In this document: piece by piece, positions 1,195-55,826 of the stretch
Numbering within the stretch: position 1 is the stretch's first letter
Layout: every line of letters begins with the position of its first letter
DNA from: Candidatus Peregrinibacteria bacterium
GTDB lineage: Bacteria; Patescibacteriota; Gracilibacteria; UM-FILTER-43-11; JACRIE01
Length of the DNA: 64,000 nt
Assembly (NCBI GenBank): GCA_016220165.1
Contig: JACRIE010000042.1
Location: forward strand, 20,379 to 84,378
Direction: 5' to 3'
Position numbers and translations under genes: made by a program
The notes under the pieces: generated by a model
What the model was told of the DNA's origin: nothing
Seen by the model: only the letters and a program-made list of their open reading frames with translations
Database searches by the model: none

Positions 1195-1223
1195 TTGACA
1201 AGTGAACATTTGTTTACTAAACT
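1195..1223 (+). promoter_or_regulatory. sigma70-like promoter with LexA-type (GAAC-N4-GTTC) box in the spacer
   Basis: TTGACA (1195-1200), 17-nt spacer aGTGAACATTTGTTTAC, TAAACT (1218-1223), 35 nt upstream of the Bro-N ORF. Same geometry as the recA and ORF6N promoters. Confidence 0.5.
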
Positions 1224-1258: not shown

Positions 1259-1899
1259 ATGACGAACCAACAAAACAAGCTCGTACTTTTTCAGGATAAA
1301 AAAATCCGTCGCATTTGGCACAATGACGAATGGTTTTTTTCAGTAGTAGATATCGTAGAAGCACTGACGGAAAGTCCTTCCCCGAGACAATATTGGGGGA
1401 TGCTAAAAGGACGTGAGCCTCAGTTGTTAACAATTTGTTTACAACTGAAATTGGAAAGTATTGACGGAAAAAAATACGTCACAGATTGCGTTAATACCAA
1501 AAACGCTTTTCGTTTAATCCAGTCGATTCCAAGCCCAAAGGCCGAACCTTTCAAAATGTGGCTTGCTCAGGTGGGCAAAGAGCGATTGGATGAGATTGAA
1601 AATCCCGAACTGGCGCAGGAACGCATGAAAGCGCTTTACGAACAAAAGGGCTATCCAAAGGACTGGATCGATAAACGGCTTCGCGGAATAGCCATCCGCC
1701 AAGATCTCACCGAAGAGTGGAAGGAGCGAGGCATTACAGACCAAAAAGATTACGCGATTTTGACTGCGGAAAAGTAGCCAAACGCGGCGGTTCCGTGGCC
1801 GGAGTGGCAAGGAAGGAAACTGAAAAAGAACTTGGCCGGAGCGTGATTTCCAACGAAAACTATTTGTCGGGTAAAAAATCAGCGAAAAAATTGAATTAA
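1259..1899 (+). pseudogene. Bro-N / phage antirepressor-type DNA-binding gene, internally deleted and frameshifted
   Basis: ORF 1259..1777 has the Bro-N family pattern (KIRRIWHNDEWFFSVVDIVEALT, IQSIPSPKAEPFKMWLAQVG, YPKDWIDKRLRGIAIRQDLTEEW, YAILTAE) and then stops. The family C-terminus (KRGGSVAGVARKETEKELGRSVISNENYL) continues in another frame (1717..1899), with the central part missing. Confidence 0.6.
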
Positions 1900-25503: not shown

Positions 25504-25532
25504 TTGACAAGTAAACAAACGTTCACTATATT
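25504..25532 (+). promoter_or_regulatory. recA promoter with LexA-type box in the spacer
   Basis: TTGACA (25504-25509), spacer aGTAAACAAACGTTCAC, TATATT (25527-25532). Confidence 0.55.
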
Positions 25533-25550
25533 GAAATACGTAACTTAAAC

Positions 25551-25680
25551 CCGTAATTTATAATTGGTAACTAGCGACCTTCCCGCCTTAGCGGGATACC
25601 TACAAGTTACAAATTATTCATAATCCCGCTGAGGCGGGACAAATTACGCATCCAATTGTTACAAGTTACGTATTATTAAT
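25551..25680 (+). repeat. about 125-nt structured element in the recA leader (copy 1 of 2)
   Basis: Shares order and sequence with the reverse complement of 42033-42155. The core TAGCGACCTTCCCGCCTTAGCGGGATACCTACAAGTTAC (25572-25610) is 36/39 identical to the other copy. Confidence 0.7.
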
Positions 25681-25687
25681 TAATTTT

Positions 25688-26701
25688 ATGTGTATGAGTA
25701 ATATGAATGTGAACAAAAAGATGGACGCGGTCAAGAATGCGCTCGCGCAGATCGAAAAAAACTTCGGCCAGGGCGCTGTCATGAAAATGGGCGATGTCCA
25801 GAAGATCAAAGTGGAAACGATTTCCACAGGCGCGCTTTCGCTGGACGCAGCCTTGGGGGGTGGCATTCCCCGCGGACGCATCGTCGAGATTTACGGCCCC
25901 GAATCCTCGGGAAAAACCACGCTGGCTCTGCACATCATTGCCGAGGCGCAAAAGCGCGGAGGCATCGCGGCGTTCATCGACGCGGAGCACGCGCTCGATC
26001 CTGAATACGCCAAACGGATCGGCGTGAATACGGACGAGCTACTCATTTCTCAGCCGGACAACGGCGAACAAGCGCTCGAAATCGCGGAAACCCTCACGCG
26101 CTCCGGCGGCGTGGATGTCATTGTCATCGACTCCGTGGCCGCGCTCACGCCCAAAGCCGAAATCGAAGGCATGATGGGCGACAGTTTCATGGGCCTGCAG
26201 GCCCGCCTCATGAGCCAGGCGCTCCGCAAACTCACGGGTACTATTTCAAAAACCGGCACCACGGTCGTCTTCCTCAACCAGCTCCGCATGAAGATCGGCG
26301 TGATGTTCGGCAATCCCGAAACCACCACGGGCGGCAACGCGCTCAAATTTTACGCCTCGATCCGTCTCGATATCCGCAAAATCGATAAAATCGATGTCGG
26401 CACCGGCGACGAACGCGAGATCTCGGGCAATCGCGTGCGCGTGAAGGTAGTTAAAAATAAGGTGGCGCCACCCTTCAAACAGGCTGAGTTCGACATTTTG
26501 TTTAATGAAGGCATTTCCCGCTCCGGCGACCTCATGGATCTTGCCGTCAAATACAGCGTGATTCAAAAAGCCGGCGCCTTTTTCTCATACGGCGAACATA
26601 AACTCGGCCAGGGCCGTGAAAACGCGCGCAAATTCCTCATCACCAACGTAAAAATCTCTACGGAAATAGAAAAAAAGGTGAAGGAAAAAATAGTGGCCTG
26701 A
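25688..26701 (+). CDS. recA: recombinase RecA
   Basis: [15 protein letters not shown], Walker [10 protein letters not shown] and [10 protein letters not shown]. The exact start among several nearby Met codons is uncertain. Confidence 0.95.
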
Positions 26702-42032: not shown

Positions 42033-42155
42033 AATTTTAATACGTAATTTGTAATCACTAAGTGATCCCTTTGGGACTCGTAATTGGTAACTTGTAGGTA
42101 TCCCGCTTTGGCGGGATGGTCGCTAATTACAAGTTACAAATTACAAATTACGTAT
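42033..42155 (-). repeat. about 125-nt structured element (copy 2 of 2), in the glmS to DUF1361 spacer
   Basis: The reverse complement aligns end to end with 25551-25680. Core is at 42087-42125. Confidence 0.7.
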
Positions 42156-44051
42156 TTATTTTACAGTGACCGATTTCGCCAAATTCCGAGGCATGTCGGG
42201 ATCCAGTCCGCGAAGTACGCTCAGATAATAAGCCAGCAATTGAATTGGGATAATGTTGACGAGGGGCGACGCAACGCCCACATCGGGGACGTGGATCCAT
42301 TCGTCAAAAACATCATGTCGCTCCGGACTCACGCCGATAATATAGGCGCCGCGGGCTTTGAGTTCCATTGTGTTGCTGAGCACATCCTCGCGGACTTCAT
42401 CGTTCGCCACAAAGGCGATGCAGGGCGTCCCATGGCTGACAAGCGCGATGGGGCCGTGCTTGAGTTCGCCAGCCGCGAACCCCTCGGCATGAATATAGGA
42501 AACTTCCTGGATCTTGATCGCCGATTCCAAGGCCATGGGGTAATTTTCAGCTTTGCCGATGATATATAAATTATTATGCTCGCGGATGAGTTGCGCGATT
42601 TCTTTAATATAAACCAGGAAGCGCGGATTGAGCATATCATTGATCTTTGAGGCCACTTCCGCCAGGAGCCGCCGGCCTTCCTGAAGGCGTTCTGTCATGG
42701 CGTAAGCGATGAGAAGCAAGAGCGTCATCTGGGATGTGGCCGCTTTAGTGGATGCCACCGCCTTCTCCGGACCGGCGTTGATCAAAAGCGAGGTGTCCGA
42801 TTGCCGCGCGATAGTGCTGCCAGCCACGTTGACAATCGAAAGCACGCGGGCTTTCTTCTTTTTCGCAGCCTCCATGGCTTCCAGCACATCCGCAGTTTCG
42901 CCGCTTTGGGAAATCACGACGAGCAAACTCTCGGGGCGCAGAAAATGATGATACACGGGAAATTCAGAAGCCGGAGCGTAATTCACATGACGCTGGGCGA
43001 TGATCGAAAAAAAGTATTCGCCGGCCATGCACACCTTGCCGGCCGTGCCGCAACCGGAAAAAAAACATCCGCGCGATTCGCGGATCGTCTGGGCGATTTT
43101 GAGGATATCTTCGTCACTCTGATCAATCGCGCGAAGAATCGTCGCCTTCTGTTCCATGATCTCCTTGAGCATGTAGTGATCATATTCCCCTTTCTCGGCC
43201 GATTCCGCTTTCCAGTCGATATTAACGAGACGTTTTTGGATCGGCTGACTTGTTTCAATATTTAAAAAATGCAGCGACGAGTGGTCAGTGACGAATTTTT
43301 CTTTCTCGTCTCTCGCCTGCCCCGAGCTTGGTCGAGAGGTCTCTCGTCTCTTGCTACTCGTCACTCGCCTGCCCCGAGCTTGGTCGAGGGGTCTCTCGTC
43401 ACTAGCCTCCCCATCTATGATCACCATCTCATTATCATCCAGATACATCACCTCCTGCGTGTATTCAAGAAACGCGGGAATATCCGACGCCACAAAATGT
43501 TCGTCTTGACCGATACCAACGATCAAAGGGCATCCGCACCGGGCCGCGATCAGCTGATGGGTGCCCACATTGATCGCCACAATGGCGTAACGCCCCTTAA
43601 GGCGGCGAAGAGCGGCTAAGACTGCCTCCTGAAAATTCATGGTTTTCCGATAACGCGCGATGAGCTGCGGAATCACCTCGGTATCCGTCTGAGAAATAAA
43701 ATACTCACGCCCCAATTCGTCGCGGATTTCCTTATAATTCTCAATAATCCCGTTCTGAACGACCGCCACGGTTTTGTCGCCGCTGAAATGAGGATGCGCG
43801 TTGATATCCGTGACGCCGCCATGCGTGGCCCAGCGCGTGTGACCGATCACCAAAGAGGCGGAGGTATTCTTAAAAATCTTCGTATCGATCCCGGAAATCT
43901 TGCCCACATGCTTCTCGACAAAAAGCTCACCGCCCCTGTCTGCGGCCACTCCCCACGAATCGTATCCGCGGTATTCCAATTTTTTAAGCCCGTCAACCAC
44001 GAGTTCGAGACCATTCGTCCGCGGCCCTATGTAACCGAAAATTCCGCACAT
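42156..44051 (-). CDS. glmS: glutamine--fructose-6-phosphate aminotransferase (isomerizing), with a 44-aa repeat-derived insertion
   Basis: N-terminal MCGIFGY nucleophile, two SIS domains, C-terminal PRNLAKSVTVK. Confidence 0.9.
   Translation of the reverse strand: MCGIFGYIGPRTNGLELVVDGLKKLEYRGYDSWGVAADRGGELFVEKHVGKISGIDTKIFKNTSASLVIGHTRWATHGGVTDINAHPHFSGDKTVAVVQNGIIENYKEIRDELGREYFISQTDTEVIPQLIARYRKTMNFQEAVLAALRRLKGRYAIVAINVGTHQLIAARCGCPLIVGIGQDEHFVASDIPAFLEYTQEVMYLDDNEMVIIDGEASDERPLDQARGRRVTSSKRRETSRPSSGQARDEKEKFVTDHSSLHFLNIETSQPIQKRLVNIDWKAESAEKGEYDHYMLKEIMEQKATILRAIDQSDEDILKIAQTIRESRGCFFSGCGTAGKVCMAGEYFFSIIAQRHVNYAPASEFPVYHHFLRPESLLVVISQSGETADVLEAMEAAKKKKARVLSIVNVAGSTIARQSDTSLLINAGPEKAVASTKAATSQMTLLLLIAYAMTERLQEGRRLLAEVASKINDMLNPRFLVYIKEIAQLIREHNNLYIIGKAENYPMALESAIKIQEVSYIHAEGFAAGELKHGPIALVSHGTPCIAFVANDEVREDVLSNTMELKARGAYIIGVSPERHDVFDEWIHVPDVGVASPLVNIIPIQLLAYYLSVLRGLDPDMPRNLAKSVTVK
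43275..43406. repeat. CGTCAC-family element, two tandem units plus inverted arm, in frame in glmS
   Basis: CTCGTCTCTCGCCTGCCCCGAGCTTGGTCGAGAGGTCTCTCGTC and CTCGTCACTCGCCTGCCCCGAGCTTGGTCGAGGGGTCTCTCGTCAC, preceded by CGACGAGTGGTCAGTGACGA. Confidence 0.85.
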
Positions 44052-44054
44052 AAT

Positions 44055-44077
44055 AAAATTTTATTTCATAAAATTTT
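44055..44077 (-). promoter_or_regulatory. 23-nt A/T palindrome 3 nt upstream of the glmS ATG
   Basis: Minus strand reads AAAATTTTATGAAATAAAATTTT, then att, then ATG. Confidence 0.6.
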
Positions 44078-44140
44078 CACACCTGACAACTGACATCTGA
44101 CACCTGACTTTTCTTTTTTATTTTAATTTTTTGTCAGATG

Positions 44141-45088
44141 TTATGTGTCATGTGTCAGATGTTCTTTATACCACTGCACCGTCTCCTTCAGCCCTCTATC
44201 AAAATCAATTTCAGGCTTCCATCCGAGCTCCTTCCTTATTTTACTGGAATCGACGGCGTAGCGCACGTCATGCCCCAAGCGATCCGTCACGAACTCGATG
44301 CGGTCCTCGGAAAGACCAAGGAGTCGAATGATCGCCTTGGCGACATCCAGATTGATGTGCTCATTGCCCGCGCCCACATTATAAACTTCACCCAGTCGCC
44401 CCGTATGCAGGACTAAATCGATCGCGCGGCAATGGTCGGAAACATGGAGCCAGTCGCGGATATTCTGGCCTTTACCGTACACGGGAACGGTCTTGCCCTC
44501 CATGAGCCGCTTCACAAAAAACGGAATGATTTTTTCTGGAAACTGGCGCGGTCCGTAGTTATTCGCGCATCGGGAAATGACTGCGGGCAGTCCGTACGTG
44601 CGCTGGTACGCGCTAATGAGGAGATCCGCCGCCGCCTTCGAGGCGGCGTAGGGCGAACTCGGCTTCAGTCGATCGTTTTCAGTGAAATGCCCCTTCACGA
44701 TATCGCCGTACACTTCATCCGTGGAGACCTGAACGTAGCGTGGATGCTTGTGCTTCAATGCCGCCTCCAAAAGCGCCTGGGTGCCCAAAATATTGGTTTG
44801 CAAAAATACCTCCGGCCCCGTGATGGAGCGATCCACATGCGTCTCCGCGGCGAAATTCACGATCACGTCCGCCTCCCCGGCTAGCGAATCAACCAGCTTC
44901 CGATCCGCGATATCCCCCTGTACGAAACGATAATTCGGATGACCTACGACCTCTTTGAGGTTGTCCGGATTCCCCGCGTACGTCAATTTATCCAAATTGA
45001 TGATTGGATAATCCGGATGTTCCTTAACCAAATAATGAATAAAGTTGGAACCGATGAACCCAGCTCCACCCGTGATAAGAAGCCTCAT
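44141..45088 (-). CDS. rfbB: dTDP-glucose 4,6-dehydratase
   Basis: TGGAGFIGSNF and YAASKAA (YxxxK); overall RmlB pattern. The last six codons (HLTHDT) lie in an intergenic-type hairpin arm. Confidence 0.85.
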   Translation of the reverse strand: MRLLITGGAGFIGSNFIHYLVKEHPDYPIINLDKLTYAGNPDNLKEVVGHPNYRFVQGDIADRKLVDSLAGEADVIVNFAAETHVDRSITGPEVFLQTNILGTQALLEAALKHKHPRYVQVSTDEVYGDIVKGHFTENDRLKPSSPYAASKAAADLLISAYQRTYGLPAVISRCANNYGPRQFPEKIIPFFVKRLMEGKTVPVYGKGQNIRDWLHVSDHCRAIDLVLHTGRLGEVYNVGAGNEHINLDVAKAIIRLLGLSEDRIEFVTDRLGHDVRYAVDSSKIRKELGWKPEIDFDRGLKETVQWYKEHLTHDT

Positions 45089-45142
45089 AATTCGTAATTA
45101 AAACGCAGAAAAAATCCTATCAAAAAAATCCGTCCTTAGCCA

Positions 45143-45171
45143 TTGCTTTTATAACGACAAAATGGTATAAT
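45143..45171 (+). promoter_or_regulatory. sigma70-like promoter
   Basis: TTGCTT, 17 nt, TATAAT, 30 nt upstream of ATG 45201. Confidence 0.5.
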
Positions 45172-45200
45172 AATTAGATTTAATCTTTAATCCCAAAGAT

Positions 45201-45656
45201 ATGTCTCAGAATACAGCGCTTAATCTCGATGACGGAAGTGATCGTCAGCACGACGGCGCCCACCGCGCCGATATACAAAGAGCCCTCCGCGCGTCGGAAA
45301 AAGCGGCCGACGGAGCCCCCTTCCCAGTCGAAGTTCAACCCACTGATGGAGAAAGAGCAGATAGAGAAGCTCTCCTTTCGGCGACAGGCAATCTCCATAT
45401 CGCGGAAAGAATTCTTGCCAAAACACTGGGTGGAACTGACGTCGTGGAAGCAATGAAAGAAAGAGGCATTAGCGTAGAACGACTCGTAGCGGAAGCTCTT
45501 GAAGAAGCCAATACCGGTAAAAATGTCACGAGCATCGCATTCTCTCGGGCGGTAAGAATGGCAAATCAGATCCTGAGAGAAAAGAGGATGCCTCAATTAC
45601 CGGATATTCATAAGGTGAGTAGGCAATTAGTAGAAGAGTTCCAACAGGAAATTTAA
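45201..45656 (+). CDS. hypothetical protein sharing an N-terminal module with the HD-domain protein
   Basis: 151-aa ORF. AADGAPFPVEVQPTDGERADREALL is similar to ATDAVFPVEVKPTPEERAAREALF in the product of 46266..47336. Confidence 0.55.
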   Translation: MSQNTALNLDDGSDRQHDGAHRADIQRALRASEKAADGAPFPVEVQPTDGERADREALLSATGNLHIAERILAKTLGGTDVVEAMKERGISVERLVAEALEEANTGKNVTSIAFSRAVRMANQILREKRMPQLPDIHKVSRQLVEEFQQEI

Positions 45657-45694
45657 AACCGTGCATTCAAATAAAAATCAATAAATTTTAAAAA

Positions 45695-46309
45695 ATGAAA
45701 CCTCCTTCTGCACCACAACCATTCGACCCCCAAGCCTTAGCGCGAGAGATGGGACTAATGGAAGCCAGATACCTCAAAGCGGTCAAGAATAAAAGCGCCG
45801 GAGTTCTGACGGGTGACACTCGTCCGGAACAACGGATAGCCGCAAACCGTGACGTGTATCGAGCTGCACTCAATGGAAAAGCCGTAGTTTCAGCCAACAC
45901 CGCAGCAAAGGGGGCCGCTCCGGATGAAGAACATGAGTCCACCCAGGCAGAAAAAGACGAAAGAATGGAAGTCTTACAACGTCAGCAAGAACTTGAGGCG
46001 AAAGCTGAAAATTTTATCCGGAGCATGGAGTGCAATCAGGCAATACGAAAAGCGCTGAAGCTTGCGGGAAACGATCCGCGTGTTGAAAGCAGAGAAATAC
46101 GAGAAGAACTCAAGCTATATTTTATTAGCAAGGGAGCTTTGAGACCTCAAAGACTATTCAAAACCATGTGCGCACGGCTCGCGGGAGACTCCGACCCTGA
46201 AGCATTTATGACCCGAGCTTTAATTACAATTGGAAAAACTTTTGACACCTTTTGCCTGCCTGATATCACGCGGCAGCTAGTGCCGGAGAAGCCTGAACGG
46301 CGGGCCTGA
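45695..46309 (+). CDS. hypothetical protein
   Basis: 204-aa ORF with no recognised domain. Its 3' end overlaps the convergent HD gene by 44 nt. Confidence 0.5.
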   Translation: MKPPSAPQPFDPQALAREMGLMEARYLKAVKNKSAGVLTGDTRPEQRIAANRDVYRAALNGKAVVSANTAAKGAAPDEEHESTQAEKDERMEVLQRQQELEAKAENFIRSMECNQAIRKALKLAGNDPRVESREIREELKLYFISKGALRPQRLFKTMCARLAGDSDPEAFMTRALITIGKTFDTFCLPDITRQLVPEKPERRA

Positions 46310-55206: not shown

Positions 55207-55776
55207 TCATTCCAGACAAAACCCGATCCTGGGTTTATCCGCAGACGGTGGTGGATTCTGCAAGCGCTCAATGGCTTGCCATACTTTTCTGAAGTCCTGA
55301 TCGTTTTTATTGGAATGTTTTAAGAAAAAGGATTTAAGCTCTCGAAGCTCTTTGATTAATTCCTGATGAGACGACAAAATCTGTCGCAACCGGATAAAGG
55401 CTCAGACGACTTGTATACTCATCAATATTGCCCGCTCACTGCGAAGGACATTGGCAGCCATGACGACTCCGTGTTCAGTAAAAACACGCGGCAGATATTT
55501 AATATTTTTTCCGCGTACAGAAGCCGCCCCTTCGTTCAAGGTCACAATTTGTGACCTTGAAGATCTGGATTCTTCCCAGCTCAATTGAAACATAAAATCT
55601 TCCGGAAATCTCTTTAAATTACGCTTAACTGCCTGAATCAGTGCCTTAGTTTCAACGCCATAAAGCATAGCCAAATCACGGTCGAGCATCACGCGGTGAC
55701 CGCGAAGGACATAGATACAATGCTCAATTCGCTCAGCAGGAACAATGGATTCAGTTTTCATACTAAAATTCTTCAA
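55207..55776 (-). pseudogene. ORF6N-domain DNA-binding gene with an in-frame TGA
   Basis: ORF6N pattern IYVLRGHRVMLDRDLAMLYGVETKALIQAVKRNLKRFPEDFMFQL. The frame reads ..MSIQVV-TGA-AFIRLRQILSSHQELIKEL.. with the stop at 55402-55404, and the C-terminal helix continues in the same frame (55207..55389). Confidence 0.65.
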
Positions 55777-55797: not shown

Positions 55798-55826
55798 AAT
55801 ATAGTGAACATTTGTTCAAAAATCAA
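55798..55826 (-). promoter_or_regulatory. promoter with LexA-type box in the spacer (ORF6N gene)
   Basis: Minus strand reads TTGATT, spacer tTTGAACAAATGTTCAC, TATATT. GAAC-ATTT-GTTC is at 55806-55817. Confidence 0.5.

Follow-up and report, generated by a model that had tools for sequence, protein, structure and literature searches.

The Gram-positive Cheo box, CGAAC-N4-GTTCG, belongs to Bacillus subtilis LexA/DinR, and in E. coli the LexA-controlled gene dinD is the counterpart of the DinD-like genes described below. The SOS network of the Patescibacteria/CPR, with small LexA-controlled regulons, has reportedly been studied by Sanchez-Osuna, Barbe and Erill (2017, Environ Microbiol 19:3465). 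In PMC7739468 this 2017 study is cited among cases of LexA evolving direct-repeat recognition, and it is also cited in PMC8565304; the box described here differs from such operators in being a palindrome. The E. coli LexA box is CTGT-N8-ACAG (PMC8565304).

As in the E. coli LexA/SOS system, where a dyad operator of a dimeric repressor is found at recA and other repair promoters, the box described here is a dyad situated at promoters of the same kind, and in relatives of this genome, as in E. coli, the promoter of the repressor gene itself is boxed. The two systems differ in operator sequence and in placement, the box here having a fixed position in which it fills the 17-nt spacer and abuts the -10 hexamer in 15 of 15 promoters, and also in that this assembly contains no cognate lexA and no box at its resident lexA. 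With the Cheo box it shares a (G/A)AAC-N4-GTT(C/T) core and the 4-bp spacing, whereas the flanks are C/G in Cheo and invariant GT/AC here, and GAAC and GTTC halves are found together, as an exact GAAC-N4-GTTC, in only 2 of 15 boxes, most sites having one AAAC/GTTT half. The original prediction had called the recA box Gram-positive-type, which is correct as far as the resemblance of its core to Cheo goes, but does not extend to the GT/AC flanks, to the asymmetric consensus or to the box-associated LexA-like proteins, which in our tree appear to form a clade separate from Bacillus LexA.

The box in the window and across the genome

The window, by which we mean the whole analysed stretch of 64,000 nucleotides (contig C26 of the assembly), holds three promoters with an embedded box, listed here together with the genes behind them.

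25504-25509, plus strand: -35 hexamer TTGACA of the recA promoter, followed by 1 nt (a)
25511-25526, plus strand: putative 16-bp operator GTAAACAAACGTTCAC of the recA promoter, GTRAAC-N4-GTTYAC family, weight-matrix score 23.0 bits
25527-25532, plus strand: -10 hexamer TATATT of the recA promoter
25533-25687, plus strand: recA leader, 155 nt, holding a repeated hairpin element at about 25553-25616
25688-26701, plus strand: recA open reading frame, 337 aa from the first ATG
1195-1223, plus strand: second promoter, TTGACA-a-GTGAACATTTGTTTAC-TAAACT, 25.7 bits (TTGACA 1195-1200, then a, GTGAACATTTGTTTAC 1202-1217, TAAACT 1218-1223)
1260-1778, plus strand: Bro-N/DinD-like gene behind the second promoter, truncated, with 172 aa where its paralogues have about 276 aa
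55826-55798, minus strand: third promoter, TTGATT-t-TTGAACAAATGTTCAC-TATATT, 21.7 bits (TTGATT 55826-55821, then t, TTGAACAAATGTTCAC 55819-55804, TATATT 55803-55798)
55402-55761, minus strand: ORF6N-domain gene behind the third promoter (PF10543, E 8e-31), 119 aa from its ATG

At recA the box occupies the whole promoter spacer and adjoins the -10 hexamer, and a consensus scan gave the promoter (25504-25532) an 11/12 match to the sigma-70-type consensus with a 17-nt spacer. This promoter had been predicted to read TTGACA, one nucleotide (a), a 16-mer one mismatch from GTGAAC-N4-GTTCAC, and TATATT, with the same geometry at 1195-1223 and, on the minus strand, at 55798-55826; letters and coordinates at recA are as predicted, the other two sites read as described, and the single mismatch is true of each of the three 16-mers. 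The further claim that no lexA gene lies in the window also agrees with our results, the sole LexA/S24 gene of the genome being located on contig C3. When at most one mismatch to the palindrome is allowed, the window contains three matches against 0.07 expected, a number reached by 0 of 100 shuffles; the number found with up to two mismatches (3 against 1.79 expected) lacks significance, and so does that of the strict GAAC-N4-GTTC core by itself (2 against 1.12 expected).

The true start of recA may be the ATG at 25694 or that at 25703. The gene is 76–82% identical to recA of sister-family genomes, and Peribacteria/Peribacteraceae MAGs accounted for three of the best recA matches in a contig scan that was too unspecific for identifying close relatives. 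The distance from box to start is 183 nt here and 51–113 nt in relatives, and the leader measures 155 nt against the roughly 20–80 nt implied by the distances in relatives, both being longer here because of a hairpin repeat. This element of about 50–65 nt, in which GTAAYTTGTAA and ACAAGTTAC arms enclose TCCCGC-loop-GCGGGA, forms an insertion in the 5' leaders of recA (window 25553-25616) and radA (C35:6602-6651), is present again at about 42081-42144 of the window and has further copies in the genome. Neither the hairpin element nor the recA leader gave a match in Rfam.

The assembly, that of a CPR bacterium of Peregrinibacteria type, amounts to 1.22 Mb in 73 contigs, with 48% G+C and 98% completeness by marker genes. 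A whole-genome scan that allowed one mismatch to the palindrome returned 17 sites, and a weight matrix likewise gave 17 sites of at least 18 bits, compared with 0–3 in Markov-shuffled genomes and with a clear gap below 18 bits. In 15 of the 17 the same layout is seen, in which a TTGACA-like hexamer is followed by one or two nucleotides, the 16-mer and an abutting TAnnnT, and among these 15 boxes a single base deviates from GTRAAC-N4-GTTYAC. The repair and DNA-related genes driven by them are recA, radA/sms, rarA/mgsA, vsr and a C5 cytosine methylase gene (dcm), with perfect operators at recA, radA and rarA; the accessory genes comprise six Bro-N genes, one of whose products we take to resemble E. 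coli DinD, two ORF6N genes, one KilA-N gene and one RhuM-family gene. The original prediction had argued from three occurrences, one of them at recA, for a real LexA-like regulon and had proposed scanning all promoters with the 16-mer; a real damage-type regulon that includes recA is supported by both the number of sites above the shuffled background and the repair genes among their targets, in 15 promoters of fixed register.

Four of the 15 box-driven genes are truncated when judged against intact paralogues or orthologues, these being the Bro-N gene at 1260-1778 and the ORF6N gene at 55402-55761 of the window (the latter 119 aa against 183–188 aa in intact paralogues), a KilA-N gene (C53:5206) and a DinD-like gene (C70:8703). 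The accessory part of the regulon is decaying, yet its operators are intact. A further box, TTGAACAAAAGTTCAC at C65:49473-49488 (20.3 bits), is without -35/-10 context and was left out of the 15-promoter count; its neighbours are a serine dehydratase gene on one side and, on the other, what we take to be a HigB/HigA-like toxin-antitoxin pair with a palindromic promoter of its own.

The box in related genomes and its probable link to LexA

The exact pattern is present in all 31 further genomes of the order, with 1–20 copies in each (0–1 for the reversed-pattern control), while of 9 genomes from other orders of the class only one contains the box, in a single copy. Across the order the consensus is asymmetric, GTGAAC-N4-GTTTAC, with an invariant outer GT/AC. 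Conservation of the recA box in relatives, proposed earlier as a check, is borne out, since 24 of 26 sister-family genomes carry the box upstream of recA in the promoter register seen here. The sister genome with 20 boxes (G008) has them ahead of ORF6N, Bro-N, KilA-N and RhuM genes and of a lexA-like operon, and presumably also ahead of genes which we read from their sequence as recJ-like and GIY-YIG-type.

In many recA promoters of the sister family another GTGAAC-N4-GTTCAC box, frequently a perfect one, precedes the spacer box by exactly 30 bp (L282, L285-L288, L290 and others), recA of this genome having one box only. Such pairing suggests that two dimers might bind cooperatively.

LexA-like proteins of 190–202 aa, in which a complete S24 peptidase domain is joined to a divergent winged-helix N-domain, are encoded by 27 of the 31 other members of the order. 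In the sister family they keep the residues of self-cleavage, namely Ala-Gly, the Ser of GDSM and the Lys of TVK, and the canonical Pfam LexA_DNA_bind domain (PF01726) is nearly absent, the N-domains of these proteins falling below its cut-off. An anti-correlation between the motif and LexA, considered at one stage, was dropped for this very reason, the sister family having S24 LexA-like proteins whose N-domain Pfam does not report at that cut-off. About half of the 30 lexA-like loci examined have an exact box upstream, either 73–105 nt directly ahead of the gene or ahead of a small ORF of 58–69 aa that precedes it, and in metagenomic homologues at 44–47% identity the box is likewise found just upstream. 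The link to LexA that had been proposed for the box is strengthened by its presence at the promoters of these S24 repressor genes.

The small ORF (58–69 aa, beginning MLTNLLIA...) is conserved in the sister family and has a hydrophobic N-terminal half and a basic tail, as seen in L117, L125, L092, L127 and others. In some related lineages, namely in two metagenome contigs (L204, L205) and at G039:C14:49208-50830, recA directly follows a lexA-like gene, with which it seems to form a pair.

Two subtypes of the sister-family proteins differ in their recognition helices while having an identical promoter box, so that a box at a lexA-like promoter is in itself no proof of that protein being the binder. 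Our main reason for reading the box as a LexA-family operator is instead that it covaries with the type of LexA at the lexA and recA promoters together. In the sister family both the lexA-like and the recA promoters carry GTRAAC-N4-GTTYAC; genome G037 has GGTGAG-N6-CTCACC at both, a sequence also present at lexA of some 25 other canonical LexA genes of the class; G033 has ATGAAC-N4-GTTCAT at lexA and ATGGAC-N4-GTTCAT at recA; and in G036, whose LexA-like protein is 192 aa long, the lexA promoter has AAAAAC-N4-GTTTAC and the recA promoter GTAAAC-N4-GTTTAC. The box is located between a clear -35 and -10 at both promoters in G037 and G033, and abuts the -10 in G036. From the sites of the GTRAAC-N4-GTTYAC box, their register, their conservation and this covariation, we infer binding by a LexA-family protein.

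We therefore consider it likely that the 16-mer is the operator of a short-type LexA-family SOS repressor of the Peregrinibacteria, built of a winged helix-turn-helix and an S24 domain, the cognate gene being absent from this assembly. A dimer of this repressor on the box would occupy all 17 nt that separate the two promoter hexamers and abut the -10, and RNA polymerase would thereby be excluded from a promoter of housekeeping type. Upon DNA damage, RecA filaments would cause the repressor to cleave itself, after which some 15 promoters would open, including those of recA, radA, rarA/mgsA, vsr, dcm and the Bro-N/DinD-like, ORF6N, KilA-N and RhuM genes. Binding of the repressor, repression and damage induction at box promoters are what we infer from sequence for these loci.

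The resident LexA and the missing repressor

The earlier suggestion of searching the genome for lexA returned one gene, on contig C3; a lexA is present, but the LexA it encodes is not of the cognate type. The genome thus holds a lexA, and the motif is enriched at its repair genes, so that the original prediction withstands both of the objections it had named. The C3 locus has the following features.

C3:46239-45601, minus strand (L001 1054-1716): lexA, the sole S24/LexA gene of the genome, intact, with Ala-Gly, Ser and Lys present
C3, about 43620-46270: module consisting of lexA and, 16 nt downstream, a 653-aa type IIG restriction-modification gene (HSDR_N_2 + N6_Mtase + Eco57I)

The C3 LexA is 64–71% identical to LexA of Daviesbacteria, Levybacteria, Roizmanbacteria and Portnoybacteria, 33–39% identical to the closest LexA of its own class and 27–30% identical to the sister-family type. 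In the tree it is placed inside a clade with 100/100 support together with LexA of other CPR phyla, apart from the box-associated LexA-like proteins, and its recognition helix (SNQSVIDLL) is that of its homologues in other CPR phyla, bar conservative I/L/V changes. Its promoter reads TTGAAC-CCGACTAAATGGTCGGG-TATATT and has no GTRAAC box; the palindrome CCCGAC-N6-GTCGGG occurs in promoter context only there in this genome. Across the lexA promoters of the clade the arm proximal to the -10, GTCGGG, is present in 8 of 8, while four promoters have CCCGAC as the opposite arm and the remaining four a degenerate version (nnAGAC/CCAGAA). The model implied by the original prediction, in which the resident LexA is the cognate regulator, is not supported in view of the membership of this protein in a clade adjacent to restriction-modification genes, its (CCC)GAC-N6-GTCGGG operator and its boxless promoter.

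In 6 of the 8 clade loci, that of this genome included, a type IIG gene lies 1–16 nt downstream of lexA. HSDR_N_2 and N6_Mtase were matched in 6 of 6 of these paired genes, which are about 650 aa long where complete, and Eco57I in 5 of 6, the sixth gene running off a contig end. Contigs of Levybacteria, Portnoybacteria, Roizmanbacteria and other CPR bacteria show the pairing too, amid flanking genes that are unrelated between loci. A search for genome-wide enrichment of the GTCGGG-type operator in two native host genomes found none, which makes the C3-type LexA look like a local controller. We accordingly read the C3 LexA, on its apparent operator and gene neighbourhood, as a putative local controller of a mobile, horizontally spreading LexA-restriction-modification module and not as an SOS master regulator, and it is probably not the binder of the GTRAAC boxes. 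At the Daviesbacteria locus L161 (2247-2275) a second LexA gene of 205 aa stands in tandem behind the first, with the spacer operator ACTGAC-TATATA-GTCAGT, and is followed by a DNA methylase gene, so that two LexA paralogues with related but distinct operators are found at one locus.

Searches of this genome by tblastn, with an N-domain HMM, and with a full-length HMM applied to ORFs of 25 aa or more, returned no short-type LexA or fragment of one, only the C3 LexA being matched. An HMM search for the small upstream ORF of the lexA operon found no copy here, and the arrangement of box promoter, 58–70 aa ORF and lexA that is present in the sister family is absent, as is a box at the promoter of the resident lexA, an autoregulatory feature met only in sister-family relatives. 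A metagenome scan for short LexA genes of the same species gave none closely related to this genome, and neither a WYL-domain protein (PafBC/DriD/CapW type) nor an ImmA/IrrE peptidase was found in this genome. Weak winged-helix matches on contigs C15 and C21, whose sequences we read as those of an AbiEi-like antitoxin and of a Fic-family protein, were rejected as regulators. The lexA gene of several sister genomes has gmk on one side and an MBL-fold hydrolase gene on the other; in this genome a type I restriction-modification gene comes after gmk (C19) and a box-RhuM unit after the MBL-fold hydrolase gene (C65), both in mid-contig. Within the order, 5 of 32 genomes are without a LexA-like gene, against about 3.5 expected from incompleteness. 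Several regulon genes are on short contigs of 6–16 kb, so such regions may assemble poorly, and in an assembly of 73 contigs a missing cognate gene is no proof of its absence from the organism. That the gene sits in an unassembled or unbinned piece is the likeliest option, with a probability that we put a little short of even.

Several other accounts of the box can be set against a short-type repressor. Control of the GTRAAC boxes by the C3 LexA, with one LexA and one regulon, has in its favour that this intact protein is the sole one of wHTH-S24 type in the genome and that both operators have a GA-N8-TC frame in a 16-bp promoter-spacer site; given that its helix matches the foreign CPR homologues, that its GTCGGG arm is kept in all eight clade promoters with the full palindrome occurring once here, that it groups at 100/100 with foreign proteins and not with those accompanying the box, that its own promoter lacks the box and that its operator is not enriched in two native hosts, we regard such control as very unlikely. 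A repressor outside the LexA and S24 families might alternatively bind the box order-wide, the lexA-like genes of the sister family being mere targets. Such a protein would account for a regulon kept here without a cognate LexA, for the same box at two subtypes with different recognition helices and for four sister-family genomes that have 4–16 boxes and no S24 gene, although these are only 89–93% complete. We nevertheless think it highly improbable, because throughout the class the box varies together with the type of LexA, this genome has neither a WYL-domain protein nor one of ImmA/IrrE type, and the number of genomes in the order without a LexA-like gene fits that expected from incompleteness. 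As for a chance or compositional feature of promoter spacers with no regulator at all, the window count at two mismatches, which is not significantly above expectation, would agree with it, but it is refuted by the window count at up to one mismatch, by the 17 sites genome-wide against about 1 expected and by the order-wide enrichment over reversed-pattern controls, and it leaves the conservation of the box at recA unaccounted for; its probability is practically nil.

A cognate lexA operon may also have been lost recently, leaving the boxes as intact relics and the 15 promoters constitutively open. Besides the failure to find the gene, a fragment of it or its small ORF, this account is favoured by the broken synteny in mid-contig at both anchors (gmk and the MBL-fold hydrolase gene), by the truncated or decayed appearance of four of the 15 regulon genes and by the absence of LexA from about 40% of the sampled genomes of the class, which indicates that loss is common. 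A neutral spacer would drift, however, and 15 boxes with one deviating base in all, perfect at recA, radA and rarA, are undecayed, so that any loss must be very recent; we consider this account rather improbable. A broader reading combines two parts, namely an SOS regulon of 15 promoters with intact operators and truly no cognate LexA, whose control an unrecognised regulator, or else the horizontally acquired LexA, would have taken over, and a LexA and type IIG module spreading among CPR phyla that would make restriction-modification responsive to RecA and DNA damage. Taken as a whole we find it unlikely, and prefer a short-type LexA-family repressor whose gene is missing from the assembly.

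Comparison with other LexA regulons and restriction-modification controllers

An SOS box and the content of its regulon can now be given for one order of the Peregrinibacteria, which are uncultured and have tiny genomes; beside recA, radA and rarA, this regulon is dominated by Bro-N/DinD-like, ORF6N, KilA-N and RhuM genes. What makes it interesting is the lack of a cognate repressor, together with the LexA clade linked to restriction-modification. The latter makes it clear that an annotation as LexA does not equal an SOS master regulator, the protein so annotated here being a xenologue linked to restriction-modification, and if this linkage is functional, restriction-modification would be coupled to DNA damage.

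The module on C3 may be compared with the controller (C) proteins of restriction-modification systems, with which it shares a small DNA-binding gene 1–16 nt upstream of the restriction-modification gene, a conserved operator inside its own promoter and an occurrence in several phyla among unrelated neighbours. C proteins are of XRE type, whereas the C3 LexA is a wHTH-S24 protein of the LexA family and could for that reason make the restriction-modification gene responsive to RecA and DNA damage.

The nearest relative of the GTRAAC box is the GGTGAG-N6-CTCACC box of neighbouring Peregrinibacteria orders. Both have a 16-bp GTGA-N8-TCAC frame, both are placed in the spacer between -35 and -10 and both are found at lexA as well as recA promoters; they differ in the inner positions (GTGAG as opposed to GTGAAC) and presumably in the binder, which for the former would be another LexA clade. 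LexA boxes diversify within one class while their position in the spacer is fixed, offering a natural series for the study of repressor-operator co-evolution. The regulon described here is in kind an SOS regulon of the ordinary sort, with its boxes placed in the promoter spacer.
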